From NCBI GenBank assembly GCA_019359155.1, contig JAHHHV010000073.1, forward strand, positions 89,982 to 121,981: a DNA stretch of 32,000 nucleotides, given 5' to 3'. The translations under genes and the position numbers were made by a program. Every line of letters begins with the position of its first letter. The first letter of the stretch is position 1. The DNA comes from Pegethrix bostrychoides GSE-TBD4-15B. Lineage in GTDB: Bacteria > Cyanobacteriota > Cyanobacteriia > Elainellales > Elainellaceae. Positions 9,468-30,430 of this stretch are shown here, piece after piece. The notes below the pieces were generated by a model. The model ran no database searches. It was not told the origin of the DNA and worked only from the letters and a program-made list of their open reading frames with translations.

Positions 9468-9863
9468 CCGAGCCGATTCTCCCGACCCAAAATTGGTGCA
9501 GCCTGATATGGCGAGTTGACAGGCTAAGCGAGGAGAGAGCAGAAGCCGAAATGGGCAGCTGCGAATCATCACCCTAGCCTTCGCCTACCGGGCTGCGCCG
9601 AAAAGACTGTTCCAACGTTTTGGCAAAATGTTTTGGCAAAATCATCCACCTGCTCCAGGCCAGCTCGCCATAGAATTCCTTACAATTCTTTACCCAGACT
9701 TGATACATTAGTACCAGAGAGATTTTGCGGTCTGCCGCATGGCTCTCATACCGGGGATCAACCTACCTGTAGCGTAAGTCAGCGCAGCTTTTGCCAGATC
9801 CCTGTAGATATAGCGGCGATGATCCGCTATTCTAAATCTCAGCCGTTTGGTTTGGGAATCGCC

Positions 9864-12800
9864 ATGTCGTTTGTTGGTCTGCATATTCACAGTGACTATA
9901 GCCTGCTAGACGGAGCCAGCCAGCTCCCCCAGCTAATCGATCGCGCTCTAGAGCTGGAGATGCCCGCGATTGCGCTGACAGATCATGGCGTGATGTATGG
10001 GGCAATTGAGCTGCTGAAAGTCTGTAAGGCCAAAGGCATCAAGCCGATCATTGGCAATGAGATGTATGTGATGAACAGCGACATCAGCAAGCAGGAGCGT
10101 CGTCCCAAATACCATCAGATTGTGCTGGCCAAAAACACCCAGGGCTACAAAAATCTGGTCAAGCTTACCACCATTTCGCATTTGCAGGGCGTGCAGGGCA
10201 AGGGGATTTTTTCGCGCCCCTGCATCAACAAAGCGCTGATTGAGCAGTATCACCAGGATTTGATTGTCACCAGCGGCTGTTTGGCAGGCGAAGTGCCCCA
10301 GGCGATTATGCAGGGCAAGCCGGAAATTGCCCGACAGGTGGCGCGCTGGTATCAAGATCTGTTTGGCGAAGATTACTACCTGGAGCTGCAAGACCACGGC
10401 TCCCAGGAAGACCGCATCGTTAACGTGGAGCTAGTGAAAATCGCCCGCGAGCTGGGCCTTGAGCTAATCTGCACCAACGACTCGCACTATATTTCCTGCT
10501 ACGACGTGGAGGCACATGACGCGCTGCTCTGCATCCAGACCGGTAAGCTGATCACCGAAGACAAGCGGCTGCGCTACAGCGGCACTGAATACCTGAAGTC
10601 AGCAGAAGAAATGAGCTGGCTGTTTCGCGATCACCTGGACGACGCAGTGATTGCCGAAGCGATTGCCAATACGCTAAAGGTCGCCGCCAAGATTGGGGAG
10701 TACAAAATTCTGGGCGAGCCGCGCATCCCCAACTACCCCGTGCCAGCAGGTCATTCGCTCTCAGACTACCTAGAAGAGATGACGCGGCAGGGGCTGATGG
10801 AGCGGTTCAACTGCCAGAGCTTTGATCAAATCACGCCAGAATATCAGGAGCGGCTGGACTACGAGCTGCAAATGATGCACCAAATGGGCTTTGACGCCTA
10901 TTTTCTGGTGGTCTGGGACTACATCAAATTTGCCCGCGACCAGGGGATTCCAGTGGGGCCAGGGCGCGGTTCAGCAGCAGGTTCTTTGGTCGCCTACGCG
11001 CTGCGGATTACCAACATTGACCCGGTGCATCACGGACTGCTGTTTGAGCGGTTCCTTAACCCAGAGCGCAAGTCGATGCCGGATATTGACACCGATTTTT
11101 GCATCGACCGCCGCGAGGAGGTGATTGAATATGTCACCGAAAAGTACGGCACTGAGCGCGTGGCGCAGATTATAACTTACAACCGGATGGCCTCCAAAGC
11201 CGTGCTTAAAGACGTGGCGCGGGTGCTGGATATTCCCTATTCCGAGTCCGACAAAATGGCGAAGCTGATCCCGGTGGTGCGGGGCAAGCCGACGAAGTTA
11301 GCGATGATGATTTCTGAAGATACGCCTGCGCCAGAATTCCGCGACAAATACCTCAACGACCCGAAAGTGCGGCACTGGCTGGATATGGCGCTGCGGATTG
11401 AGGGCACTAACAAAAGCGTCGGCATTCATGCGGCGGGCGTGGTGATTTCTTCTGATCCGCTAGACGAAATTGTGCCGCTTCAGCGCAACGCAGACGGCTC
11501 GGTATTCACCCAATATTACATGGAGGATATCGAGGCGCTGGGTCTGCTGAAAATGGACTTTTTGGGCTTAAAAAACCTGACAATGATCCAAAAGGCAGTC
11601 GAGCTCATCAAGCAGACTCAGCAGGTTGATCTCGATCTCGATGAGCTGCCGATGGATGATCTCAAGTCCTATCAGCTTTTAAGTCGGGGCGATTTGGAAG
11701 GCATCTTTCAGCTAGAGTCTTCCGGGATGCGGCAGATTGTCAAAGACTTGCGCCCTTCTGGACTCGAAGATATTTCGTCGGTGCTGGCACTGTATCGACC
11801 AGGGCCGCTAGATGCCGGGTTAATTCCCAAGTTTATCAACCGCAAACATGGACGTGAACAGATCTCTTATGAAGATAAGCTGCTGGAGCCTATCCTAAAC
11901 GAAACGTACGGCATCATGGTCTATCAAGAGCAGATTATGAAAATTGCTCAGGATATGGCCGGATATTCTTTGGGGCAGGCCGACTTACTGCGTCGCGCGA
12001 TGGGCAAGAAGAAGAAGTCGGAAATGGAGAAGCACCAGGAGCTATTTGTGAAGGGCGCTTCTGAGAACAATGTCCCGAAGAAAGTCGCAGAAGATCTATT
12101 TGAGCAAATGGTGATGTTTGCTGAATATTGCTTTAACAAATCGCACTCCACCGCCTACGGATACATTACCTATCAAACCGCTTACCTCAAGGCCAACTAT
12201 CCGGTCGAGTACATGGCGGCGCTGCTGACCTCCAACAGCGGTGACCAAGACAAGGTGCAAAAATATATTGCCACCTGTATGAACATGGGGATTACGGTCG
12301 AGCCGCCCAGCATCAACCGCTCCGGCATCGACTTCACGCCGCTATCTGAGAGCATTCTGTTTGGCCTTTCAGCTGTGCGGAACGTCGGCGGTGGCGCAAT
12401 TGAGAACCTGCTGGCGGCTCGCGCAGATGGCCCCTTCGTCTCGCTGCCCGACCTCTGCGACCGGGTCGATCCGCGCACCGTCAATAAACGCGCCCTAGAA
12501 GCCCTGATCCAATCTGGGGCGCTGGACGAACTCGAACCCAACCGCAACCAGCTGATGCACGACCTCGAACCCGTGCTGGACTGGGCGCAGTCTCGCGCCA
12601 GAGACAAAATCAGCGGTCAGGGCAATCTGTTTGATTTGATGGGCAGCAGCGAAACCAGCATGAGCGCTTTTGACTTGGCACCCAAAGCGCCTGCTGTGCC
12701 CGACTATCCGCCCCAAGAAAAGCTGAAGCTAGAAAAAGATCTGCTCGGCTTTTACATCTCCGATCACCCGCTCAAAACCGTACAGAATGCGGCGCGCATG

Positions 12801-13352
12801 CTAGCCCCAATCAACCTCAGCGAGCTGAGCGAGAAGCCAGATAATATTACCCTGAGCGCGATTGCGATGATTAGCAGCATCAAGCCCATCGTTACCAAGA
12901 AGGGCGACCGCATGGCTGTGGTGCAGATCGAAGACCTGACTGGGCATGCCGAAGCCGTGATCTTCCCCAAATCCTTCGAGCGTATTCAGCAATATATTCA
13001 GGTCGATACTCGCCTGATGCTCTGGGGCAAAGTAGACAGGCGGGATGACCGCAGCCAGTTTGTGATTGAAGATGCGGAGCCAATTGAAGACGTGCGGATG
13101 GTGATGGTAGAGCTCGACAGCCTCACCGCCAGCGACATCCGGCAGCAGCACGGACTCCGCACCATTTTGCTGGAGCATCGCGGCGAAGATGAGAGCGGCA
13201 AGATTCCAGTGATTGCGGTGATCTCCAGCCTGGAGCGGCGGGAAATTGTGCGGCTGGGGGCGCAGTTCCGGGTGCAGAACCACGAAATGACGGTTGGCGC
13301 TCTGCTGAAGGCGGGATTTCAGGCGCGGGTCGAGACACTGCTGGCTGGCTGA
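9864..13352 (+). CDS. dnaE: DNA polymerase III alpha subunit (contiguous, intein-less)
   Basis: PHP domain start [19 protein letters not shown] (ATG 9864; the track's upstream extension is not homologous). Also [21 protein letters not shown] and [16 protein letters not shown]. 1162 aa. Confidence 0.95.
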
Positions 13353-15046: not shown

Positions 15047-17308
15047 TTACTCCACGCCCCCTACCGTCAGCATCCGCGCCTCAATCCCCGCCCACAGCTC
15101 TGGCGACAGCCGCACCGCCGCCTCTTTGCAGCGCACCATTAGCTCGTTGGCGTAGAGGTAGTCTGCGAGTAGCTGAGATTCTTCCTCGGAGAACTCAACG
15201 ATTGCTGGATCAAGTTGAAGCGTGTCAAACCAAAGTTTCTGAATTTGCTCAACGAAGGCGCGTCGGACTTTAGGAGGCTGATTGTCATCTGGTGGTGTAA
15301 GAGCTTCAAGCTTGAAAATTACCTGCGTGAAATCAATCGAGTGAAAAATTTTCGCTTGCTCACAAAAGCGAGCACGGTCGAGGTCGCGGTCGCGGTCGAG
15401 GTCGCGAGCGCGGTTGAGGGCACGGTCGAAGGCGAGGTCGCGGTCGAGGGCACGGGCGAGGTCGAGGACGCGGTCGAGAACGCGGTCGAGGTCGAGGGCG
15501 AGGTCGAGGGCGAGGTCGCGGGCGCGGGCGTAGTCGAGGACGAGGTCGAGGTTGCGGGCACGGGCGAGGTCGCGGGCGCGGGCGAGGGCGTAGTCGAGGG
15601 CGAGGTAAACCGCCACCGATCGCTTGGCCGCAGGTTTATAATCTCCTTCTGACCCATTGGTTGCCTGCTCTACCCATTTCAACAAAGGAATAATCCGTTG
15701 AGCTGCTAAAGGATTTTGGAGCAGCGTTCGCACCTGCTTTTCCATCAGCACCAGTAGCTCATCAGCGCCTTTCCGTCCCGGCATTAGTCCGGTGACCAGC
15801 AAAAATACTTCTTTCCAGCGTTGATCTGTCAAATGATTCGTAACCAACTCTTCGATCTGCTGGTTATCAACAATATATTGCGCGGTTAGATATTCTTGAA
15901 ACGTCAGATGCGAAAACGAATAGGCATCTCTGGCACGTTCAACCAAAATTCCCTGCTGAACTTCAATTGCTTCCAAAATCTTTTCGCTGTCGAGATGCTT
16001 GGGCGCATTTAGGTTATTGACCAAAAATTCTCGAATCTTATCGGCGATGCTGCGTTTGTTGAAGAAAAGCTCGTCCTCAACAAAGCTATCAAAGGCAATA
16101 TCAGCCAGTAGTTCGTGCTCTAGCTCAAGGCTCAACTCTTGATAAATCGGGTTGTGCTGAATCCGCTTTTCAGATGCCCATTTTCGCAGCAGCACATCCA
16201 GTGCCTCGCCATACAGCGTCGAGCGATTCTTGGGAAAATCCATCGACTCGTCATAAACCGCACAGAGCAGTGTCAGCAGCAGCGGCGTTTGGGCTAGCTC
16301 TTTGGCCGCAGCATATTCAGGCCGCTTCAACAGCTCCCAGCACTGATCAGCCGTTTGCGTCTCCTCATCTTTGGGTGCACGAAACCAGTTGCGAATAAAC
16401 TGCTCAATCTGCTCATCCTCAAATGCCGCCATCGCCACATCTTTGAAGCGCGGAAACCCGCCCTTGTAGGCCGCAACCCGACAAGAGGCAATAAACCGAT
16501 TTCGGCTGTAGCGATCCACCAAATCCTGAATCTGCGTAATCGCATGATCCAAATGCTCCAGCGGCACTTCATCCAAACCATCCAGCAAAATCAGCAGCTT
16601 GCCTTTTTCCAACGCCGCCAGCGCAAACTCTTCAGATTCCGGGAAGCCGCAAATCTCAAACTCTCTGGCAATCAGCGACTCAACCTTAATCTCCTGCGAA
16701 TTAAACCGCTGTAACGCCAAAAACACCGGAATGCAGGCATGGTCAAACGTGCCCTGCTTCCCCTTCAGTGCCTCCAGCCCCACCTTCCGCAAAAAAGTCG
16801 ATTTGCCAACTCCCGGCCCGCCCAGTACCATCAAATACTGCGTTTGATTGGCGACCATCAGCCCTGACTGCTTGCCATCTTGCCCTCGCCCAAGTCTGCG
16901 CTGCTCCCCCTGCCGGAACAAACTTTGCAGCGACTCAGCCGATTCAAAATAGCGCAGCTCCGAGCGATCCAAAACCTGCACCGCCGTATACAGATCCTCC
17001 AGCCGCATCGGATTATCCATCCGCACACAGGCCACCTTCAGCTCGCCGTGCCGCTTCTCGTAGTTGAGCACATATTGCCGAATTGCCTCTTTCAGCTTTG
17101 GCTTAAGAATATCGTGGTCGAGCTGTTCAGCCAGTTTGCTGCCTTTCGTTTTGACGATTTCTGTTACCAGCGCTGTCAATGCAGAAGTCCCGATCGCGAT
17201 TAGGGGTTCAAAGCCGGTCATAGTTAGAAGCAGCAGGGGGAATATCCCCAGAATAAGTGCGACTTGCCGGATCAGCAACCCAAGCAGTCGGCTCAGTTTC
17301 AGGATCAA
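15047..17308 (-). CDS. NACHT-domain STAND NTPase with C-terminal A/L/D/R repeat tract
   Basis: Walker A LGGPGVGKSTFL and Walker B LLILLDGLDEV, followed by a helical and winged-helix-like region. The start is ambiguous: ATG 17308 gives a hydrophobic N-terminus but overlaps the upstream ORF by 100 nt, and ATG 17221 (MTGFEP) is the alternative. Confidence 0.85.
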   Translation of the reverse strand: MILKLSRLLGLLIRQVALILGIFPLLLLTMTGFEPLIAIGTSALTALVTEIVKTKGSKLAEQLDHDILKPKLKEAIRQYVLNYEKRHGELKVACVRMDNPMRLEDLYTAVQVLDRSELRYFESAESLQSLFRQGEQRRLGRGQDGKQSGLMVANQTQYLMVLGGPGVGKSTFLRKVGLEALKGKQGTFDHACIPVFLALQRFNSQEIKVESLIAREFEICGFPESEEFALAALEKGKLLILLDGLDEVPLEHLDHAITQIQDLVDRYSRNRFIASCRVAAYKGGFPRFKDVAMAAFEDEQIEQFIRNWFRAPKDEETQTADQCWELLKRPEYAAAKELAQTPLLLTLLCAVYDESMDFPKNRSTLYGEALDVLLRKWASEKRIQHNPIYQELSLELEHELLADIAFDSFVEDELFFNKRSIADKIREFLVNNLNAPKHLDSEKILEAIEVQQGILVERARDAYSFSHLTFQEYLTAQYIVDNQQIEELVTNHLTDQRWKEVFLLVTGLMPGRKGADELLVLMEKQVRTLLQNPLAAQRIIPLLKWVEQATNGSEGDYKPAAKRSVAVYLALDYALARARDLARARNLDLVLDYARARDLALDLALDLDRVLDRVLDLARALDRDLAFDRALNRARDLDRDRDLDRARFCEQAKIFHSIDFTQVIFKLEALTPPDDNQPPKVRRAFVEQIQKLWFDTLQLDPAIVEFSEEESQLLADYLYANELMVRCKEAAVRLSPELWAGIEARMLTVGGVE
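15372..15606 (-). repeat. low-complexity coding repeat (GAGGTCGCGG-type) inside the NACHT gene
   Basis: Encodes ALDYALARARDLARARNLDLVLDYARARDLALDLALDLDRVLDRVLDLARALDRDLAFDRALNRARDLDRDRDLDRAR. The tract is open in several frames on both strands, which explains track ORFs 15215-15652 and 15319-15657. Confidence 0.85.
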
Positions 17309-17941: not shown

Positions 17942-18568
17942 CTATCTGCCAGCCCTCAACACTTGTTCAGATGTCAGCTTTAAACCTGGGAAAGTTGAGG
18001 AAACAAAAGTCTGATTGCCTCGAAACTGCTGAATTTCGTACTCTGCATCTACTAGCGTGCAGATAGAGAGGGTGGGTTGTTTGGGCTTCCCAATCTGTCG
18101 AGTACCCCCCAATCCTGCGTAGTCTACAATCCAATATTCGGAAATGCCTAACGCTGCGTAGTCTTCAAGCTTACGCGCATAATCATTTTGCCAGTTGCTA
18201 CTCACGACTTCCGCCACAAATTTGATCGAAGTGCCTACAGTCAAGATCGACTGGTCATACCAAAGCGGCTCTTTGGCCAGTTCACCTTGATCGACCACTG
18301 CGATATCAGGACGAAATGCCGTCATGCCAGGGTCAGAAGGGCGTAGCAATCCACGCTGAAGGACAAACCAAGGTAACCCTGCTGCGTCGATTTGGACACA
18401 GATCTTCATCGTTATGAAGGCTGCAACCTCTTCATGCAAGCCTGTTGGTTCCAAGTCAAACACCTCTCCGTCAATCAGTTCGTAGCGGTTGTCACCACCA
18501 TAATGAGCAAGAAACTGATCAACGCTAAGTGGCTTCTGCTGAATTGCTTGATCGACTGCAATGGCCAT
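17942..18568 (-). CDS. Uma2 family (DUF820) endonuclease
   Basis: 208 aa. YELIDGEV...EP and the later D/E-K type core (PDIAVV...FVAEVVS) are typical of the abundant cyanobacterial Uma2 family. Confidence 0.8.
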   Translation of the reverse strand: MAIAVDQAIQQKPLSVDQFLAHYGGDNRYELIDGEVFDLEPTGLHEEVAAFITMKICVQIDAAGLPWFVLQRGLLRPSDPGMTAFRPDIAVVDQGELAKEPLWYDQSILTVGTSIKFVAEVVSSNWQNDYARKLEDYAALGISEYWIVDYAGLGGTRQIGKPKQPTLSICTLVDAEYEIQQFRGNQTFVSSTFPGLKLTSEQVLRAGR

Positions 18569-21169: not shown

Positions 21170-21240
21170 GCGGCGGCAGATTAACTTAGCATCTCAGTAA
21201 GGGGATTTGACCCGTCCGCTCCAGCGTGTTGTTGTTATGC
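21152..21240 (-). repeat. attC-like imperfect palindrome overlapping the purN stop codon
   Basis: Plus strand: GCCCAAC GGCTTAGCTGAGCGGCGG ... CCGTCCGCTCCAGC GTGTTGTT GTTATGC. It belongs to the same sequence family as 4805-4880, with extra bases again on the plus-strand 3' arm. Confidence 0.5.
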
Positions 21241-21440
21241 AGCTTAACCCACGCTTGAGACGTAGCTTTATTGTGACTGAGCATACTTCTGAGCCTTAAA
21301 CCCCCTCCAGATAAGCTGTTCAGGCGTTCACGGACGCCATCATTCTGACATTTTCTCACTTTAGACCGCAAAGCAGTTGACAATGTCAGAGTCATGGATT
21401 AACGTTGAGGTATTAAAAACTCCGATAAGCGGAGGTTGCC

Positions 21441-22073
21441 ATGCCAGATGGGGATATTATCCATAGCAGATTGAGACGACTTTATCAAAAACCGTACAAG
21501 TGGCTTTGCGAAGGCACTGCAACCAGTGATGAATGTGCGCGGGCGCTGTTAGAGAAGCTCAAACAAGACATTCAAGCTAAAGGTGATCTCCCCATTGTTC
21601 TCTCACAAGCAATGGCAGATAGCGTTGCACAAATAAGTAACCATCTTGAAGAAGCTAGAGAAGGTGACTTTGCCAGACTCAGTATGGAATTCGAGGTTCT
21701 AGCTCAGAAAGCGGATGGGCGTCCGGATTTGAAAGAACTGACTTTACGGGCAGGCAAAGGCTTGCTCAACGATCTTAGAAATGGGCGAGAAGTAGATATG
21801 ACTCATCTTTCAGAGGCTATTTATGGGCGGTATATTCATGAGGTTTATGAATCAGAATTTAAAGAACGAATTCCATTGACCTCAGAACATCATGCAGGTG
21901 TTATTCAAAGAACCCTCGAAAGACGAATTGAAGCCATGCAATCAAGTGTAGATTCTGGGATTCAAAAATTTGCTCAAAATGCTATCAGGAATCAAAGTGT
22001 AGCCAAACTATCTCTGCCCCGACGCCCTTCTCGAAAAGCAATTGATTTAAACGAAGACCTTCTGGCAGTTTAA
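21441..22073 (+). CDS. hypothetical protein (210 aa, predicted helical), first gene of the four-gene operon
   Basis: GGAGG lies 8 nt upstream of the ATG. AT-rich codon usage is shared with the next three genes. No motif recognised. Confidence 0.75.
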   Translation: MPDGDIIHSRLRRLYQKPYKWLCEGTATSDECARALLEKLKQDIQAKGDLPIVLSQAMADSVAQISNHLEEAREGDFARLSMEFEVLAQKADGRPDLKELTLRAGKGLLNDLRNGREVDMTHLSEAIYGRYIHEVYESEFKERIPLTSEHHAGVIQRTLERRIEAMQSSVDSGIQKFAQNAIRNQSVAKLSLPRRPSRKAIDLNEDLLAV

Positions 22074-22078
22074 GCAAA

Positions 22079-23508
22079 ATGAAAAGACAAGATGTACAAG
22101 ATTCTGAATTTACCTTGCTTTTCGAGCTGGTGATGAGTGGTGGTGGATCTGTTCGCCTACTTGATCATTCTAGAAATCGAGAAAGTAATGTGAAAGTTGC
22201 TGTAGACGATAGCGCATTTAATTATCGAGTACAAAAAGAATTTCCCTCCATAATTGCTGATCTCATTGATCTGGCTATTGCTATTCATGCAGCTGATCGC
22301 TTGACCTTTCAAAGCCTAAGACAGCATCAAGCTCGGATTCATGTTGTTCTTCCAGCTCGTCATCCAGAAATTCTAAATCAAACCCCTCTACAAGATAAGC
22401 TCTCTAATCTTCTAGAATGGGCGACCGGCAGCAGATGGGTGTTTGAATTTGCAAAAAGAGTCGATTTGGGACGTGCTGTTGAGCAACAGCCTCTACTTTC
22501 GTCTGCTGCTCCCTATGTAGATGAAGTAGCACTTTGGAGTGGTGGCCTTGATGCTCTAGCTGGACTTTACACTCGTCTTAAGGAAAACCCCGAAATATCT
22601 TTTTGCTATTTGGGACAGGAAGCAATGATAACGCCTACGCCCGTCAAGAGCAGGTCTTTCAAGCGCTTCAACCATCTTTTCCTAATCGGTTAAACCTATG
22701 CAGAGCACCAATCCGTTTTTCTGAGAGCAATTTGCATACGAAAAACAAAATTTCTCGCGCAAGGGGTATTGTGTTCACGTTACTTGGTTCAGCTTGTGCA
22801 TATCTGATGGGACGGCGGGTTTTACACTTATACGAGAATGGCATTGGTGCAATCAATCTTCCCTATCGAAAATCTGCTGTTGGTCTGGATCATTCTCGAT
22901 CAGTTCATCCTTTGACCCTTCTTGGGGTTAGCAATCTGATATCAGAGCTCATAGGAGAGGAATTTAGAGTTAGGAATCCCTTCCTTTTTTGGACAAAAGC
23001 TGAAATGTGCCAGCAATTGGCAGAAGATGCGAAGTATGAATTACCTTCTTTGACTATTTCATGTGATAGCCCACATCGTAAGCAGCCTATCCAATGTGGC
23101 TACTGCTCATCTTGTATATTAAGAAAACAAGCACTTGCAGCCTCACAAGTAAAAGACCAAACCCATTACATCGTGTCTCATGCTACTCGTCCAGTAGGTG
23201 ATATTAGGTTATATCTCCAGCATATGCTTGCGCAAGTTTCTACACTTAAGGGATTGCTGAAATATTCAGAAAATGCTGCTACCCAATGGGAGTCTTTGAC
23301 TAAGAGATTCCCTGAACTTGACGACATCGTAGATAGGACTCATAAAGTAGAAGGCTTAACATCTCTTGAAATGAGAAAATGCTTAATTCGGCTCTATCAA
23401 ACCTATGTTTCTGAATGGGATACTGTAGAATCCCAAATTTCAGGAGCTTTCTTGAATCAGGTAAGTATTCAGCAAGTATCGCAAGATTTCCAGCCTGCTA
23501 TCCAGTAA
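22079..23508 (+). CDS. QueC-like PP-loop ATPase with ~140-aa N-terminal extension, interrupted by a frameshift (track ORFs 22079-22693 and 22603-23508)
   Basis: PP-loop ALWSGGLDALAG in the first frame. The rest of the QueC fold is in the second frame (LFGTGSN, GIVFTLLGSACAY, NPFLFWTKAEM, C-terminal CGYCSSCILR Cys cluster). The frames overlap at 22582-22693, around a T5 run at 22600-22604. Confidence 0.8.
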
Positions 23509-23526
23509 GAGTGAAAGGGAAATGCT

Positions 23527-24720
23527 ATGGCTGTCAACATTCTTGACAATATTGATTTACAAAAATTGGGAGAGCTTCTACAACAAGCGCGGAAGAAGAG
23601 TGGGATGACCCAAGCTGATGCGGCTAAGGTCATCGACGCTGCACGAACTACCATTGTTGCCATTGAAAAGGGAGAGCGGCGTCTCAAGCCGAATGAGTTA
23701 ATCAAATTAGCTCGTGCTTACGGACGAGCTATCAGCGATTTCGTTCGCTCTACTCCTGTTACTGAGCCATTTGAGGTTCAGTTTCGCGCTGCTTATCAAC
23801 GAAATGAACAGGAAGAAGTACAAATAAGCCCAGTTATCCAGCGCTTTGAGGAACTGTGCCGCAACTACTTGGAGCTTGAGAAGATAATGGATGCTCCAAT
23901 TGCTCGTAACTATCCTCAGGAATATAGCGTGAGCAGTATGCCGTTAGAAGCGGCGGCGGAGAGCATTGCGATCTCAGAGCGTCAACGGCTTGGACTAGGA
24001 GATGGCCCAATCCCAATGCTTCGAGACATCTTGGAGCAAAGTGTAGGGATTAGGGTGTTCTACCTAAATATGCCAGCAAAATATTCAGAAATTTACAGCT
24101 ATGATGAACAGCTCGGTGGCTGTATAGCAATAAACCTGAGTCATTACGAAGAACGGCGGCGTTGGTCTATGGCTCATGGCTATCTCCATTTTCTTGCGCA
24201 TAGACGAAAGCCCGTTGTAGATTTTGAGGGACAATACAAAAGAATTCCAGAGAGTGAGCGATTAGCCGAAGCTTTTCCCAAGTATTTTCTAATGCCCACA
24301 AGTGGCTTGCTGAGTCGATTTAACGATATGTATCGAACTCATGGTAAGTTTACTCCAACTAATTTGTTTACTCTTGCTCATTATTATGGGGTGTCTATAG
24401 AAGCCCTTGTTTATCGGTTAGAAGATATGGAACTTCTTCCGTCAGGAACTTGGGATCGTCTGCGTGATCGAGGATTAAAGGTTAGAAAAGTACAGCAAGA
24501 ACTAGGTTTAGAAGAGATCGAGCATCGGGCTGACATACTCCCTATCCACTATCAACACCTTGCTATTGAAGCTTTGGAGCAAGGGCTTATCACTGAAGGA
24601 CGCTTTGCAGATTTCCTTGGTGTTGATCGGTTAGAAGCTCGACGTATAGCAGAAACATTATGTGAACATTCCAGCGGGATGCTGGAAGAATCTGCTTATC
24701 TAGATTTGCGTCAGGCGTAA
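23527..24720 (+). CDS. XRE-HTH / ImmA-IrrE (COG2856) metallopeptidase-domain fusion protein
   Basis: N-terminal HTH (SGMTQADAAKVIDAARTTIVAIEKGER). The central motif AHGYLHFLAH aligns to the ImmA AHELGHxxxH. The C-terminal LAHYYGVSIEALVYRLEDMELL is typical of the family. Confidence 0.85.
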   Translation: MAVNILDNIDLQKLGELLQQARKKSGMTQADAAKVIDAARTTIVAIEKGERRLKPNELIKLARAYGRAISDFVRSTPVTEPFEVQFRAAYQRNEQEEVQISPVIQRFEELCRNYLELEKIMDAPIARNYPQEYSVSSMPLEAAAESIAISERQRLGLGDGPIPMLRDILEQSVGIRVFYLNMPAKYSEIYSYDEQLGGCIAINLSHYEERRRWSMAHGYLHFLAHRRKPVVDFEGQYKRIPESERLAEAFPKYFLMPTSGLLSRFNDMYRTHGKFTPTNLFTLAHYYGVSIEALVYRLEDMELLPSGTWDRLRDRGLKVRKVQQELGLEEIEHRADILPIHYQHLAIEALEQGLITEGRFADFLGVDRLEARRIAETLCEHSSGMLEESAYLDLRQA

Positions 24721-24738
24721 GAGATTGGGAGACGAATT

Positions 24739-25290
24739 ATGGAAATCAAACACTCCCATGTAGTTCTTGATGCCTGTTGTGTCTTGAACTTTTGTGCTTC
24801 TGAGCACTTGATCGAGATTATACAGTGCTTACCAGCTCAAGTTGTAGTTACTGAAGTCGTTAGAGAAAGAGAATTGCTGACTCTCCAACGCTTAGCAGAC
24901 GAGAGTAACGAGGATACAAATCAATTTGAAGCAGCTATGGAAAAGGGGCTACTTGCAGTTATAGATTTTAATTCTGAGAGTGAGGAAGAAACCTTTGTAA
25001 ACTATGTTTTTGAGTTGGGAGATGATGGTGAATCAGCAACCTGTGCAATTGCGGTTCACCGAGAGTGGGCGATTGCTACCGATGATAAGAAAGCAACTTC
25101 TTTTTTCCAACGGGAAGCACCCAACCTGCAAATTCTATCAACTTTAGCAATAATCAAGCATTGGTCAGAGGCAGCGAATGTTTCCTCTGCTACTTTACGA
25201 TCTGTGCTTACCGCTATACAAATGAGAGGACGCTACATCCCACACCGCCACCATCCTTTACTAGGTTGGTGGGAAGATATGATGCGATGA
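24739..25290 (+). CDS. PIN-like domain nuclease
   Basis: 183 aa. Acidic residues sit at PIN-typical positions: VVLDACCVLNF (strand 1), VVTEVVRE, and AIATDDKKA. Confidence 0.65.
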   Translation: MEIKHSHVVLDACCVLNFCASEHLIEIIQCLPAQVVVTEVVRERELLTLQRLADESNEDTNQFEAAMEKGLLAVIDFNSESEEETFVNYVFELGDDGESATCAIAVHREWAIATDDKKATSFFQREAPNLQILSTLAIIKHWSEAANVSSATLRSVLTAIQMRGRYIPHRHHPLLGWWEDMMR

Positions 25291-25377
25291 ACTCGAAACC
25301 GCAAGGAAGTTCATCTGGGCATCTGTCAGTAGCTTGCGTGGCTGTATAACAATAAACTAGGGCTACAGCAACCGGGG

Positions 25378-26223
25378 CTACAGCCGCGAACGGTCGGTCA
25401 AAATCTCGTAGCCATCTTCCGTGACCAGCACCGTATGCTCAAACTGCGCCGACAGCGCTCGATCCACCGTCACGACCGTCCAACGATCCGATAGCGTCCG
25501 GGTCAGCCGACTGCCTGCATTCAAAATTGGCTCAATTGCCAGTGTCATCCCGGCTTTGAGGCGCACGTTTGGCAGTTCGTGGGTGCGGAAGTTGAACACG
25601 GCGGGTTCTTCGTGCAGATTGCGCCCCACGCCATGCCCGGTAAACTCTTCGACGATTTTAAAGCCGTTCGCCTCGGTGTGATCCTGGACAGCGGCGGCAA
25701 TATCCAGCAGCATTCGGCCTGCCTTCACCTGCTCGATGCCTTTGTAGAGGGCCTCCTCCGCTACCCGCATCAGCTTTGCCGCTGCTAGAGTCACCTCGCC
25801 CACCGCAATCGTGATGCAGGAATCGCCGTGGAACCCTTCGTAGTAGGCTCCTGTATCCACCTTCAACAGGTCGCCGCGCCGAATCACCTTTTTGCGGCTA
25901 GGGATGCCATGCACCACTTCGTCGTTGAGGCTGGCGCAGATCGAAGCCGGAAAGCCGTGGTAGTTTTTGAAGCTCGGCGTGGCGCCCATCTCCCGAATCC
26001 GCTGTTCGGCCAGCGCATCTAGATCCGCCGTCGTCATTCCCGGCTGCACCTGCTCTGAGATTTCCTTTAAAACAGTGGCGACAATCCTAGAGGCATGTCG
26101 CATAATTTCTAGCTCTGGCGGCGACTTCAGCTCAATGCCGCGCTTACGGCTAATGCGGGGCGGCTGATGGGGCAGCAGTTTCGTCAAAATGTTCATACAG
26201 AAGCCGGTAGCTGTAGCTTTCAT
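25378..26223 (-). CDS. map: type I methionine aminopeptidase
   Basis: [52 protein letters not shown] and [16 protein letters not shown] metal-ligand motifs. The start may be the internal MNIL (26196). Confidence 0.95.
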
Positions 26224-26496: not shown

Positions 26497-26853
26497 CTAA
26501 TCACCAATAGAAACTGTTGCTAAATCTAAAGCCGTGAAGGCATGCAGTTGAGTAGCAATCCCTGCCACAATTTGCACTGCACCTCGCACCACCAAGGAAG
26601 CCGGAGCCACTTTACGCCCCGTACAACGCCGTTGGTGATGTCGCCACCGTCCAAACAACTGCTCCAAGTCATTGTTGGTTCTAGGTAAGCCCTCCAGCTC
26701 ATAACAATGAAACAATCCTGGTGCATAACTGCGAGTCACTTTGAGAAAATGGTCAAGGCCAGAGGCTAAATGGCCTGCTTGGGCTTTGTCTTGTGCCTTC
26801 GTTGTCTTGAGAGAAAATCTGAAAGCATTGGGAACTGGTTCGGCTCTGCTCAA
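26497..26853 (-). pseudogene. transposase-like C-terminal fragment (IS remnant)
   Basis: 118-aa ORF containing LPRTNNDLEQLFGRWRHHQRR. This resembles the TNNxxE...R segment that follows the catalytic E in several DDE transposase families. There is no N-terminal catalytic part and no inverted repeats were identified. Confidence 0.35.
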
Positions 26854-27004: not shown

Positions 27005-27211
27005 ATGACTTTTAGTGATGTGGTCGAGAGTATAAAAAGTCTTTCCACAGATGAAAAACGTGAGATTCAACTGTTGGTGCAACAATATCTTCGCGAGGAG
27101 CGGCGTGACGAAATATATGCCAACTTCAAGTCAGCGCAAGTCGAACAGCAAAAAGGTGAACTGAAATTTTCCTCCAATATCAAGAGGCTGAGACAATTGA
27201 TGGAGGAGTGA
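27005..27211 (+). CDS. putative antitoxin (addiction-module component-like)
   Basis: 68 aa. Its stop lies 3 nt before the RelE/ParE-like toxin start. SLSTDEKREIQLLVQQYL resembles small helical antitoxins. Confidence 0.6.
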   Translation: MTFSDVVESIKSLSTDEKREIQLLVQQYLREERRDEIYANFKSAQVEQQKGELKFSSNIKRLRQLMEE

Positions 27212-27214
27212 TTT

Positions 27215-27481
27215 GTGGAAGTCAGTTTCAGTTCTCCATTCAAACGTGCTTTCAAAAAGCGTATTAAAGGCAACACAGAGCTAGAGGTAAGATTTGGGCA
27301 AAAATTGGAACAGTTCACTGTAGATCCATTTGATCCGAGCTTGAAGACACACAAACTATCGGGCAAGCTCAAGGATTTTTGGAGTTTTAGCGTAGATTAC
27401 GATGAGAGGGTGCTGTTCTACTTTCTGGAAGCTGAGAAAGCTGTGTTTGTGGATATCGACAGTCATGACGAGGTGTATTGA
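27215..27481 (+). CDS. RelE/ParE-superfamily type II toxin
   Basis: 88 aa, GTG start. FKRAFKKR...DPFDPSLKTHKLSGKLKDFWSFSVDYDERVLF...DIDSHDEVY matches the RelE/YafQ-type pattern. Confidence 0.8.
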   Translation: MEVSFSSPFKRAFKKRIKGNTELEVRFGQKLEQFTVDPFDPSLKTHKLSGKLKDFWSFSVDYDERVLFYFLEAEKAVFVDIDSHDEVY

Positions 27482-28862: not shown

Positions 28863-29822
28863 ATGGCTCAAGTAACATGCTTAGAAATCTGTGCTGGCGC
28901 TGGTGGTCAAGCCTTAGGGCTAGAGCAGGTAGGCTTTGAGCCTCAAGCACTTGTAGAGATTGATGGAGCTTGTTGTAACACTCTTAGATTTAATAGACCC
29001 CAGTGGAATGTCATAGAAGGCGATCTGAGAGACTTTGAGTGTAAACCATTTGAAGGAATTGATTTGTTGGCTGGAGGTGTACCTTGTCCTCCATTTTCAA
29101 AAGCAGGAAAGCAGTTGGGGAAAGAAGATGAGCGCGACCTTTTCCCTGAAGCTTTGCGTTTAGTAGATGAATGCAGACCTCGTGCTGTCATGTTAGAAAA
29201 CGTGCGAGGATTTTTAGATGCTGTTTTCGAAGATTATCGAGGTAATCTCAAACGACAGCTTGAAAAGATGGGATATGTAGCTGATTGGAGATTATTAAAT
29301 GCTTCTGATTTTGGGGTGTCACAACTTAGACCTCGCGTTGTTATCATAGCGATGCGCAAAGATTTATCAGAAAATTTCTTATGGCCAAAGTCTTATGGGC
29401 AAAATCCAGCAACTGTTGGGACACTTTTATATGATCAAATGGCATCACGAGGATGGAGAGGTGCTAAGAAATGGAAACGACAAGCTGATGATATTGCACC
29501 CACAATTGTTGGGGGGTCTAAAAAACATGGCGGCCCCGATTTAGGTCCTACTCGTGCTAAGCGAGCCTGGGCAAACTTGGGGGTAGATGGAATGGGCATA
29601 GCTAATGAGCCACCTGATCAAGACTTCTTGGGAATGCCCAAACTAACGGTTGAAATGGTTGCTAGGATACAAGGCTTTCCCGATGATTGGCATTTCACAG
29701 GCAAGAAAACCCCTGCATACCGTCAAGTGGGTAATGCATTTCCTCCACCCGTTGCTCAAGCTGTGGCAAGAGAGATTTATAACTGCTTGACTCACAGGAA
29801 AATATTTACAGTTGCCAGTTAA
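28863..29822 (+). CDS. DNA (cytosine-5) methyltransferase
   Basis: Motif I LEICAGAGGQALG, motif IV GGVPCPPFSKAGK, motif VI LENVRGF, motif VIII QLRPRVVIIA and motif X QVGNAFPPPVA. Confidence 0.9.
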   Translation: MAQVTCLEICAGAGGQALGLEQVGFEPQALVEIDGACCNTLRFNRPQWNVIEGDLRDFECKPFEGIDLLAGGVPCPPFSKAGKQLGKEDERDLFPEALRLVDECRPRAVMLENVRGFLDAVFEDYRGNLKRQLEKMGYVADWRLLNASDFGVSQLRPRVVIIAMRKDLSENFLWPKSYGQNPATVGTLLYDQMASRGWRGAKKWKRQADDIAPTIVGGSKKHGGPDLGPTRAKRAWANLGVDGMGIANEPPDQDFLGMPKLTVEMVARIQGFPDDWHFTGKKTPAYRQVGNAFPPPVAQAVAREIYNCLTHRKIFTVAS

Positions 29823-29833
29823 GTGGTTATCTC

Positions 29834-30430
29834 ATGTCAGAAAAGAGAGGCGCAAGAGCGAAACTCAGAGAACACTTTCTAAATAACATCGGAAGGGTTA
29901 TGGATTCTGATGAGCTTAGAGAAGTGGCGGGAGGTATTACGGAATGGGCAAGACGAGTAAGGGAGCTGCGATCAGAAGAAGGATATCAAATTCAAACCCA
30001 CAATGATAGGGGCGATTTAAAGCCTGGTCAATACATCCTCGAAGATCCTAAGCCAATTCCCGCTTTTGAAAGAGCAATATCTAAGGAAACACGGGCATAT
30101 GTTCTCGATAGGAATGGATTTACTTGTCAGATGTGTGGTGCTGTAGCTGGAGAGCCGCATCCCTATGACCTTACGAGAAAAACTCGATTGCATATTGGGC
30201 ACATAGTAGATAAATCTCAAGGAGGCACTGACGACCCATCAAATCTTCGTGCAATTTGCTCTGTGTGCAACGAAGGAGCCTCAAATTTAACTCTGGAAAG
30301 ACCATCAAACTTGAAACTTTTAGCACAGGTCAGACGGGCGAAAGGTAGTGATCAAGTTGAGCTTCTTAAGTGGCTTGTTCGGAAGTATCCAAAACAGACT
30401 GAGGAGTTTTTGGATGAGAACAATACCTAA
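29834..30430 (+). CDS. HNH-type endonuclease, probable cognate restriction enzyme
   Basis: 198 aa, starting 11 nt after the methyltransferase stop. HNH motif CQMCG...HIGHIVDKSQGGTDDPSNLRAICSVCN. Confidence 0.75.
   Translation: MSEKRGARAKLREHFLNNIGRVMDSDELREVAGGITEWARRVRELRSEEGYQIQTHNDRGDLKPGQYILEDPKPIPAFERAISKETRAYVLDRNGFTCQMCGAVAGEPHPYDLTRKTRLHIGHIVDKSQGGTDDPSNLRAICSVCNEGASNLTLERPSNLKLLAQVRRAKGSDQVELLKWLVRKYPKQTEEFLDENNT

Follow-up and report, generated by a model that had tools for sequence, protein, structure and literature searches.

A question raised by this locus is why a gene for a QueC-like enzyme should sit, together with a small partner, in a tight four-gene block with an XRE-HTH/ImmA-IrrE fusion and a PIN-like nuclease, and whether such a block represents a single system. 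We addressed this in a window of 32,000 nucleotides from Pegethrix bostrychoides GSE-TBD4-15B (GCA_019359155.1, contig JAHHHV010000073.1), which is the whole stretch of DNA analyzed and to which all positions refer (table 1). The four ORFs lie on the same strand with gaps of 5, 18, and 18 nt, and their GC content of 0.40-0.48 contrasts with 0.50-0.63 in the flanking purN and map, both of which were confirmed by Pfam. The original prediction had read these genes as a candidate undescribed defense or conflict system, and every family assignment it made was borne out. Our analysis indicates a self-contained, horizontally mobile cassette, which is probably an undescribed variant of the Qat anti-phage system, although its defense function and mechanism are inferred and not shown.

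Table 1. Features of the four-gene cassette, all on the forward strand of the window.
Position	Feature	Details
21234..25350 (+)	Extent of the transferable block	Cassette plus about 200 nt upstream and about 60 nt downstream; homology begins at about 21234-21375 and ends at about 25350
21337..21397 (+)	Operator-like inverted repeat	Left arm TCTGACAT; right arm TTGACAATGTCA, itself the palindrome TGACA-A-TGTCA; probably binds the gene 3 HTH (inferred)
21377..21405 (+)	Putative sigma-70-type promoter	-35 TTGACA (21377-21382), 17-nt spacer, -10 TAACGT (21400-21405); the -35 lies inside the right operator arm
21431..21435 (+)	Shine-Dalgarno GGAGG	Precedes the gene 1 ATG; can pair with CTCCG at 21420-21424
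21441..22073 (+)	Gene 1	210-aa all-helical (predicted) partner protein; presumed substrate or adaptor of gene 2
22079..23508 (+)	Gene 2	QatC-family PP-loop ATPase, 476 aa when repaired; split into 22079-22693 and 22603-23508
22603..22604 (+)	Site of the frameshift	One A missing between these two bases, TCTTTT[A]TGCTA
23527..24720 (+)	Gene 3	397 aa; XRE-HTH (about residues 14-75), Peptidase_M78/ImmA-IrrE domain (about 171-299), C-terminal helical region; presumed autorepressor and PIN-neutralizing hub
24739..25290 (+)	Gene 4	183 aa; PIN nuclease (predicted fold, conserved acidic residues)

To determine whether this arrangement could have arisen by chance, we retrieved 80 loci through gene 2. 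All loci with enough flanking DNA carry all four genes in the same order and on the same strand, and they span at least five phyla and include cyanobacteria, Chloroflexota, Gemmatimonadota, Chthonomonadia, and Rubrivirga; the same layout is found on alphaproteobacterial plasmids of Bosea, Pannonibacter, and Labrenzia. The main refutation test of the original prediction, co-occurrence of the genes elsewhere, was thus passed strongly. The pairwise-identity matrices of the four proteins correlate at rho 0.87-0.92, showing that they codiverge, and no recurrent fifth gene appears in the 80 loci. A blastn comparison of the window with the loci L011 (94% identity) and L001-L010 showed that the flanks are unrelated. 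It should be noted that about one locus in ten carries a disrupted gene, and the window itself is such a case: a DNA alignment with loci L011, L001, L003, and L005 located a single missing A in gene 2, where intact relatives read SFMLFG. This copy is probably crippled by the frameshift, which the original prediction had implied, unless it is a sequencing error.

Gene 2 is a divergent member of the QatC clade of QueC-family PP-loop ATPases, and intact 476-aa homologues are found at 92-60% identity. A profile search against the PDB structures of QatC (9vlk/9zee) gave an E-value of 1.6e-25 over residues 60-376, aligning residue 60 with QatC residue 62, so that the QatC-specific N-terminal domain is included; D61 and D73 are invariant across both clades (the catalytic Asp in this domain is D63 in Escherichia coli QatC). 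The PP-loop reads WSGGLDA at residues 153-159, with S154, G156, and D158 invariant with canonical QatC and the last Ser replaced by Ala. The QatC signature motifs (PMC13329287) are found as R227-x-R229-x3-F233, E253-N-G255, H277-P278, P301-x4-T306-K307 (within NPFLFWTKAEM), and the Zn site C329/C340-G-x-C343-x-x-C346/R349, although the Cys spacer is 10 residues rather than 19. In contrast, the invariant Thr pair T278/T280 of the substrate site (PMC13279940) is replaced by S273 and S275, and by H/Y-R-N in the alphaproteobacterial copies. The PADLOC QatC model also hits, but against the NCBIfam QatC model (NF041925; PADLOC PDLC02214) the repaired protein scores 155.1 bits and the intact homologue P0045 scores 155.2, below the curated equivalog cut-off of 280 bits, whereas canonical QatC scores 532.7.

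Gene 1 is an orphan always encoded immediately upstream of gene 2. AlphaFold2 modeling predicts seven helices (pLDDT 85.7), and no sequence or fold match was detected; the family comprises 387 clusters at 50% identity. Its extreme N-terminus, M-[P/A/S]-D-x-D (M-P-D-G-D in this copy), is the best-conserved part of an otherwise fast-evolving protein and is conserved in 114 of 129 divergent full-length representatives; a C-terminal tail, LPRR..IDLxEDLL, is also conserved. The original prediction had suggested a possible substrate or adaptor analogous to QatB, but gene 1 is only a positional and functional analogue, without detectable homology to QatB (hhalign probability 2.4%). It lacks the N-terminal glycine that is essential in QatB and CdnD, and its tail before helix 1 is only about 12 residues, against 30-90 in QatB. 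Interestingly, the active-site loop of the enzyme differs by clade (STRTTHP, HSRSVHP, DHRN-NP) in step with the N-terminus of the partner (MGTS, MPDGD, MSDGP).

Gene 3 is an XRE-HTH fused to a Peptidase_M78 domain (Pfam HTH_3 2.7e-14 and Peptidase_M78 3.9e-24). Its best hit in the defense library is RmrA, with 15 RmrA models matching, the best at 3.2e-25 and covering residues 18-305, followed by capP (1.2e-10) and capH (5e-8). It is the most conserved of the four proteins, with a mean pairwise identity of 0.68. However, the HExxH motif reads H217-G-Y-L-H221 in this copy, and among 77 gene 3 sequences the catalytic position is Gly in 44, Glu in 24, and Asp in 8, having switched at least eight times, whereas H217, H221, and E244 are conserved; proteolysis therefore cannot be an obligatory step. 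Gene 4 is a PIN nuclease by fold and by conserved acidic residues: D11, E45, G97-E98, and D115 are invariant and D116 and T135 nearly so, and the AlphaFold2 model (pLDDT 87.5) retrieves VapC/PIN structures in Foldseek with probability 1.0 and a TM-score of up to 0.70. Homologues carry PF11848, and four members hit Pfam PIN weakly. The gene 3 and gene 4 half is itself a previously predicted module of HTH-DUF955 with a COG2405 PIN (PMC2701414, PMC5499597).

Upstream of gene 1, the pattern TGACAW-N(about 31)-WTGTCA lies about 97 nt before the ATG in 47 of 72 loci, including Chloroflexota, Gemmatimonadales, and Rubrivirga, with only 51 matches in 1.13 Mb of locus DNA. This conserved palindrome overlaps the -35 box of the operon promoter; the promoter was read from the sequence and is inferred, as a consensus scan did not list it, although the TTGACA is conserved across loci. 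Pairing of the Shine-Dalgarno sequence gives a hairpin of -7.4 kcal/mol that is not significant (z = -1.0), although ACTCC...GGAGG is conserved in the alignment.

Taken together, the block is one evolutionarily cohesive, horizontally transferred four-gene operon, and we propose, with a probability of roughly 0.6, the following mechanism, all of which is inferred. The gene 3 HTH would bind the palindrome and keep operon expression low, and gene 3 would also hold the PIN nuclease inactive, as in RosmerTA-type and HTH-DUF955/PIN toxin-antitoxin modules; deletion of rmrA was not tolerated in RosmerTA (10.1101/2022.05.11.491447), and the HTH-DUF955 and COG2405 PIN pair was already predicted to be a TA-like module with an unknown upstream signal (PMC2701414, PMC5499597). 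Gene 2 would bind gene 1 and modify its exposed N-terminus using ATP, in parallel with QatC-QatB and Cap9-CdnD, with an adduct that need not be a 7-deazaguanine. Published work shows that QatBC is the minimal defense unit and that the QatB N-terminus sits in the QatC active site (PMC13279940, PMC13376578). On phage infection or a related insult, the modification state of gene 1 would be read by the M78 domain of gene 3, either as a substrate or as a ligand, lifting repression and freeing the PIN nuclease to cut RNA and arrest the infected cell. The chemistry of gene 2 and every protein-protein contact in this scheme remain inferences. The window holds other conflict genes (NACHT, Uma2, a YafQ-like TA pair, and Dcm+HNH) and the cassette abuts an Eco57I-type R-M gene on the Pannonibacter plasmid, but immediate neighbors in the chromosomal loci showed no clear enrichment for PADLOC families, and no copy was found on viral contigs.

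A possible but less likely alternative is the same system with different wiring, in which gene 3 is only a CapH/CapP-like transcriptional controller that derepresses the operon after DNA damage or infection, and the PIN nuclease is activated directly by modified gene 1 or by the gene 1-gene 2 complex. The capP and capH hits, the palindrome over the -35 box, and a conservation of gene 3 far above that of a typical antitoxin favor this view; however, the best hits are the RmrA antitoxin models, which cover almost the whole protein, cleavage-based derepression is hard to reconcile with Gly at the catalytic position in 57% of the sequences, and gene 3 lies directly before the PIN gene with tight spacing or overlap, the classic antitoxin-toxin arrangement. 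It is also conceivable, although rather doubtful, that the cassette is a selfish addiction or stress-response element, a four-component TA that stabilizes itself or its host replicon without a dedicated anti-phage role, with genes 1 and 2 tuning antitoxin activity in response to cell physiology. The predicted TA nature of the gene 3 and gene 4 half, the occurrence on conjugative plasmids, the patchy distribution in unrelated contexts, and the lack of a clear defense-island signal around the chromosomal copies are in line with this, but the only characterized relatives of gene 2 (QatC, Cap9) and of gene 3 (RmrA, CapP) act in phage defense (PMC13279940, 10.1101/2022.05.11.491447), and TA and defense functions are not mutually exclusive. 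A chance juxtaposition of a minimal QatBC-like pair and a RosmerTA-like pair could be suggested by the PADLOC hits falling into two known systems and by the sufficiency of QatBC alone for defense in Pseudomonas and E. coli (PMC13279940), but is effectively refuted by the strict co-occurrence, order, and strand in every retrieved locus with enough DNA, the intergenic gaps of 0-20 nt or overlaps, the codivergence, and the single conserved promoter/operator upstream of gene 1. Finally, a housekeeping QueC, as suggested by the public annotation "7-cyano-7-deazaguanine synthase" and a Pfam QueC hit (PF06508, 2.8e-7), is very unlikely, as only positions 149-208 of the 210-position model match, TIGR00364 scores 15.8 bits against a cut-off of 150.3, the protein aligns end to end with QatC, no queD/E/F neighbors are present, the gene sits in a mobile, AT-rich block in variable contexts, and canonical QatC does not complement a queC deletion (PMC13329287).

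We found no literature on this architecture, and no named system covers the locus at HMM level in PADLOC-DB v2.0. The qatABCD system (Gao et al. 2020; PMC13279940, PMC13376578, PMC13639016) shares the QatC-clade enzyme, a small helical partner encoded immediately upstream with a conserved extreme N-terminus, and a four-gene operon that includes a nuclease; here, however, no QatA (KAP NTPase) or QatD (TatD) is present in the cassette, their place being taken by the XRE-M78 fusion and a PIN domain rather than a TIM-barrel TatD, and the partner carries neither the MGTS motif nor a long tail. RosmerTA (Millman 2022) and the predicted three-component HTH-DUF955(COG2856) and PIN(COG2405/DUF3368) toxin-antitoxin modules (Makarova 2009, PMC2701414; Matelska 2017, PMC5499597) share an RmrA-like HTH-M78 fusion directly upstream of a COG2405-type PIN, exactly as those surveys describe, but the module is never free-standing here, being always preceded by genes 1 and 2, the HExxH Glu is interchangeable, and gene 4 hits no PADLOC model, RmrT included, which, given the diversity of RmrT families, weakens membership in RosmerTA but does not exclude it. 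Type IV CBASS, in which Cap9/Cap10 deazaguanylate the CD-NTase N-terminus (10.1101/2025.04.06.647259), likewise pairs a QueC-family enzyme with a protein whose processed N-terminus is the presumed acceptor, yet no CD-NTase, Cap10 TGT, or cyclic-nucleotide effector was found in the cassette or its flanks, gene 2 is of the long QatC type and not the minimal Cap9 type, and the CDG-binding Tyr/Asp pair is not conserved. In the CapH/CapP regulators of CBASS and other defense operons, an HTH repressor plus an M78 metallopeptidase controls a defense operon, and here too an operator overlaps the promoter, but the two are fused in one polypeptide, the catalytic Glu is often missing, and the protein is positioned as a PIN antitoxin.

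The four open reading frames (ORFs) on the plus strand were all recovered, with gaps of 5, 18 and 18 nt between them and a GC content of 0.40-0.48 inside the block, compared with 0.50-0.63 in the neighboring genes, which are purN (Formyl_trans_N, 8.9e-55) and map (Peptidase_M24, 1.1e-51). Everything described in the original prediction, which had claimed a closely spaced, AT-richer four-gene operon between purN and map with a GGAGG before the first ATG, is present.

Coordinates of the four-gene cassette, its regulatory and neighboring features, and selected copies on other sequences
Feature	Sequence	Coordinates	Strand	Description
Gene 1	window	21441-22073	+	210 aa
Gene 2	window	22079-23508	+	read as two overlapping pieces, 22079-22693 and 22603-23508
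Frameshift in gene 2	window	between 22603 and 22604		single A missing
Gene 3	window	23527-24720	+	397 aa
HExxH position of gene 3	window	24175-24189		residues 217-221, reads HGYLH
Gene 4	window	24739-25290	+	183 aa
C-terminal tail of gene 1	window	22016-22073		residues about 192-210
Limits of nucleotide homology with L011	window	21234 and 25350		
Inverted repeat	window	21337-21397		arms at 21337-21355 and 21379-21397
Hairpin including the Shine-Dalgarno sequence	window	21420-21434		CTCCG-ATAAG-CGGAG
Shine-Dalgarno sequence	window	21431-21435		GGAGG
dnaE	window	9633-13352		
NACHT-domain NTPase	window	15047-17308	-	753 aa, NCH2 C-terminal domain
Uma2-family putative endonuclease	window	17942-18568	-	
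Tandem 15-nt direct repeat	window	25355-25384		
map ORF	window	25378-26223		
ORF with no Pfam match	window	26497-26853	-	118 aa
Probable toxin-antitoxin pair	window	27005-27481	+	68-aa ORF followed by an 88-aa YafQ/RelE-like toxin (PF15738, 5.9e-6)
C-5 cytosine DNA methylase (Dcm) and HNH endonuclease	window	28863-30430	+	1.4e-68 and 6.9e-10
Gene 2 of the closest genomic relative	L011	3459-4888		filamentous cyanobacterium CCP5
Four-gene cassette (L082)	Bosea plasmid NZ_CP017148	334220-337956		
Four-gene cassette (L087)	Pannonibacter plasmid NZ_CP032314	19963-23666		

To resolve the split reading frame of gene 2, we aligned its DNA with that of four relatives, which showed that the window simply lacks one A (TCTTTT[A]TGCTA). 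Restoring this base gives SFMLFGTGSNDN, the family consensus, and a protein of 476 aa. A programmed frameshift was rejected, because intact relatives have an uninterrupted frame; homologues of 475-490 aa at 92% down to about 60% identity are abundant in cyanobacteria, where they are usually annotated as "7-cyano-7-deazaguanine synthase." The closest genomic relative, the locus L011 of the filamentous cyanobacterium CCP5 (94% identity), carries its own, different 1-nt deletion in gene 2 (G-run, alignment column 359), 167 nt upstream, so either both assemblies have errors or gene 2 has been inactivated twice in this lineage. About 10% of all retrieved loci have one of the four genes split (gene 2 in loci L063, L064, and L076; gene 3 in L037, L069, and L076; gene 4 in L009 and L029), which could reflect recurrent decay or assembly error.

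The Pfam QueC model matches gene 2 only over the last 60 positions of the model, and the canonical QueC equivalog scores 15.8 bits against a cut-off of 150. In contrast, the PADLOC and NCBIfam QatC models hit both halves of the split gene, the repaired protein scores 155 bits (E 2.4e-45), and a family profile finds the two solved QatC structures (9vlk, 9zee) at E 1.6e-25 over residues 60-376. A joint alignment with five canonical QatC proteins shows invariance of D61, D73, W120, F124, S154, G156, D158, R227, R229, E253, G255, P278, P301, T306, K307, C329, C340, G341, C343, C346, R349, and Y364, a set that covers the PP-loop, the QatC-only N-terminal domain with its catalytic Asp, the motifs listed for the QatC cluster (PMC13329287), and the zinc site. 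Three differences from canonical QatC were noted: the score lies well below the equivalog cut-off of 280 bits (a canonical QatC scores 533), the invariant T278/T280 pair of QatC is S273/S275 here, and the C-terminal region is longer. Gene 2 is therefore a separate subfamily inside the QatC clade, not a QueC.

Gene 3 encodes HTH_3 (2.7e-14) and Peptidase_M78/IrrE (3.9e-24) domains, and in PADLOC it matches 15 models of RmrA, the antitoxin of RosmerTA, with the best at 3.2e-25, as well as capP and capH. Although the window copy of gene 4 has no Pfam hit, its family alignment has invariant D11, E45, G97-E98, and D115 and near-invariant D116 and T135, many database homologues carry PF11848/DUF3368, and an AlphaFold2 model (pLDDT 87.5) matches VapC/PIN structures with a Foldseek probability of 1.0 and TM up to 0.70. 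Gene 4 is a COG2405-type PIN nuclease with an intact active site. An HTH-DUF955 fusion directly upstream of a COG2405 PIN is precisely the predicted three-component toxin-antitoxin arrangement of Makarova 2009 and Matelska 2017 (PMC2701414, PMC5499597).

The HExxH motif of the M78 domain presents a complication for protease-based models. Across 77 sequences of gene 3, the second position of the motif is Gly in 44, Glu in 24, and Asp in 8, with at least eight independent switches on a neighbor-joining tree, whereas H217, H221, and the presumed third zinc ligand E244 are conserved. The peptidase may be catalytically dead in most copies, and peptide-bond hydrolysis cannot be an obligatory step. 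Gene 3 is nevertheless the most conserved of the four proteins, with a mean pairwise identity of 0.68, compared with 0.52 for gene 2, 0.51 for gene 4, and 0.37 for gene 1; the domain is clearly under selection, probably as a zinc-dependent binding or sensing module.

Gene 1 gives no hit in Pfam, NCBIfam, or PADLOC. Its AlphaFold2 model is confident (pLDDT 85.7) and shows seven helices, but has no structural neighbor in the PDB or BFVD. To test for homology with QatB, to which the original prediction had likened this protein as a possible substrate or adaptor, we compared a profile with PDB sequences, which found nothing, ran hhalign against five QatB sequences, which gave a probability of 2.4%, and searched with the PADLOC QatB model, which gave no hit; homology is rejected at a detectable level. 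The termini of the protein are distinctive. In 71 genomic loci and in 116 of 120 database entries it starts with M-[P/A/T/S]-D-G-D, followed by ..YQKPYK.LCEG, and among 129 full-length representatives at no more than 50% identity, 114 start M-x-D, with P at position 2 in 93, A in 15, S in 4, and T in 1, D3 present in 114, and D5 in 111. The alphaproteobacterial versions are otherwise unrecognizable (14% identity), yet they start MSDG. Given the established specificity of methionine aminopeptidase, every residue seen at position 2 permits removal of the initiator Met. This resembles the logic of QatB (MGTS) and CdnD (MGGS), whose processed N-termini enter the QueC-like active site (PMC13279940, PMC13376578), although the motif itself is different, acidic, and without the essential glycine. 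The C-terminal tail (consensus LPRR..IDLxEDLL; LPRRPSRKAIDLNEDLL in the window) is also conserved, recognizable even in distant phyla, and predicted to be disordered; it could be a docking or cleavage motif for gene 3 or gene 4.

To interrogate whether the cassette represents one system or two, we searched 185,579 species genomes with the gene 2 alignment, which returned 86 hits, of which 80 loci were kept. Every locus with enough flanking DNA contains homologues of genes 1, 2, 3, and 4 in that order, on one strand, with tiny gaps or overlaps. The loci are mostly cyanobacterial, but also come from Chloroflexota (Anaerolineae, Ktedonobacteria, Caldilineales), Gemmatimonadales, Chthonomonadia, and Rubrivirga, at 35-43% identity. 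A tblastn search against plasmids found the same four-gene layout on Bosea, Pannonibacter, and Labrenzia plasmids, with profile E-values of 4e-36 (gene 2), 5e-87 (gene 3), and 8e-21 (gene 4), whereas canonical qatABCD operons were found on other plasmids. On the Pannonibacter plasmid the cassette lies next to a large AAA ATPase and an Eco57I-type R-M methylase; in the public records of the alphaproteobacterial plasmids, gene 2 is annotated as "7-cyano-7-deazaguanine synthase" and gene 3 as "XRE family transcriptional regulator" or "helix-turn-helix domain-containing protein." The pairwise-identity matrices of the four proteins correlate at rho 0.87-0.92, and no fifth gene recurs, with none of 436 flank families in more than six loci. 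Genes purN and map flank the cassette only in this window, and nucleotide homology with the 94%-identical L011 stops at either side of the cassette. Just downstream of the cassette boundary on the gene 4 side, a tandem 15-nt direct repeat (AACTAGGGCTACAGC / AACCGGGGCTACAGC) lies between gene 4 and map, overlapping the end of the map ORF as well as a terminator-like hairpin on the minus strand. The cassette is one cohesive, horizontally mobile unit, spread by horizontal transfer across at least six phyla, and the family is sizeable, with 387 clusters at 50% identity for gene 1.

An inverted repeat lies upstream of gene 1, and its right arm, TTGACAATGTCA, is itself palindromic and overlaps a perfect -35 box, followed after 17 nt by a TAnnnT -10. 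The pattern TGACAW-N(about 31)-WTGTCA occurs about 97 nt upstream of the gene 1 start in 47 of 72 loci, including the non-cyanobacterial ones, and only 51 times in 1.13 Mb of locus DNA. We infer that this is likely the operator of the gene 3 HTH, and that the operon is autorepressed. A hairpin covering the Shine-Dalgarno sequence is conserved in sequence, with ACTCC...GGAGG found in many loci, but is not statistically supported as a structure, as it could not be distinguished from shuffled controls in folding energy (z = -1.0) or in pairing frequency (53% against 44% paired).

The window mixes core genes (dnaE, purN, map) with other conflict-type genes. A NACHT NTPase and a Uma2 endonuclease lie a few kb upstream of the cassette; further genes include a probable type II toxin-antitoxin pair, homologues of whose toxin also lie near the cassette in the loci L047 and L052, and a Dcm methylase followed directly by an HNH endonuclease, a likely restriction-modification pair. 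An ORF of unknown origin lies in an AT-richer stretch between map and the toxin-antitoxin pair. The mix of core and conflict-type genes is suggestive of a defense-rich neighborhood but proves nothing. A PADLOC search of 133 ORFs immediately flanking the cassette was uninformative, with only a few kinase or PglW-like hits, each in two members, and no copies were found on viral contigs.

The most likely mechanism, which is inferred, is that gene 3 represses the operon at the palindrome and neutralizes the PIN nuclease, while gene 2, with ATP, modifies the N-terminus of gene 1; infection changes this state, which is read by the M78 domain of gene 3, and the PIN nuclease is released and degrades RNA, arresting the cell. 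One feature fits enzyme-substrate coevolution: the active-site loop of the enzyme (STRTTHP, HSRSVHP, DHRN-NP) changes together with the N-terminus of the partner (MGTS, MPDGD, MSDGP) across the three clades. The main alternatives are that gene 3 is only a CapH/CapP-like transcriptional switch, or that the cassette is primarily an addiction module. Two adjacent independent systems, and a housekeeping QueC, were both rejected.

A more far-reaching interpretation, which we regard as tentative, is a distinct antiphage immune system in which a QatC-like ligase writes an ATP-dependent mark on the processed N-terminus ([P/A/S]-D-x-D) of a dedicated helical partner, and a zinc-peptidase-like repressor/antitoxin reads that mark and releases a PIN ribonuclease. 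This would be the first case where a QueC-family protein modification has an identifiable downstream effector, and the acidic, non-glycine acceptor motif and the S/S active-site pair hint at chemistry different from Cap9 deazaguanylation. QatBC is known to be the minimal Qat defense unit, although what QatC attaches to QatB, and how that stops phage, is still unknown (PMC13279940); here the same kind of enzyme-partner pair is hard-wired to an explicit regulator and an explicit nuclease effector, which gives a readable output for the modification. The HTH-DUF955/PIN modules were predicted in 2009 and 2017 to be toxin-antitoxin systems "in which the upstream signal still needs to be determined" (PMC5499597), and the obligate gene 1/gene 2 pair is a concrete candidate for that signal.

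PADLOC-DB v2.0 recognizes only QatC and RmrA pieces of the cassette, and the QueC-family survey lists only KAP_NTPase and TatD as recurrent neighbors of the QatC cluster. Full-text searches found no description of this architecture, and searches linking QueC-like proteins with XRE, M78, COG2856, or PIN returned nothing relevant. The family is currently misannotated as 7-cyano-7-deazaguanine synthase plus hypothetical proteins, so that catalogues of defense systems miss it, especially in cyanobacteria. In this window the system is probably disabled by the gene 2 frameshift, while genes 1, 3, and 4 remain intact. On the mechanism inferred here, the cassette works like a Qat system whose QatA/QatD are replaced by a RosmerTA-like HTH-M78/PIN module. 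It is not a member of qatABCD, because QatA, QatD, and a QatB homologue are all absent, and it is not a standard RosmerTA, type IV CBASS, or QueC either.
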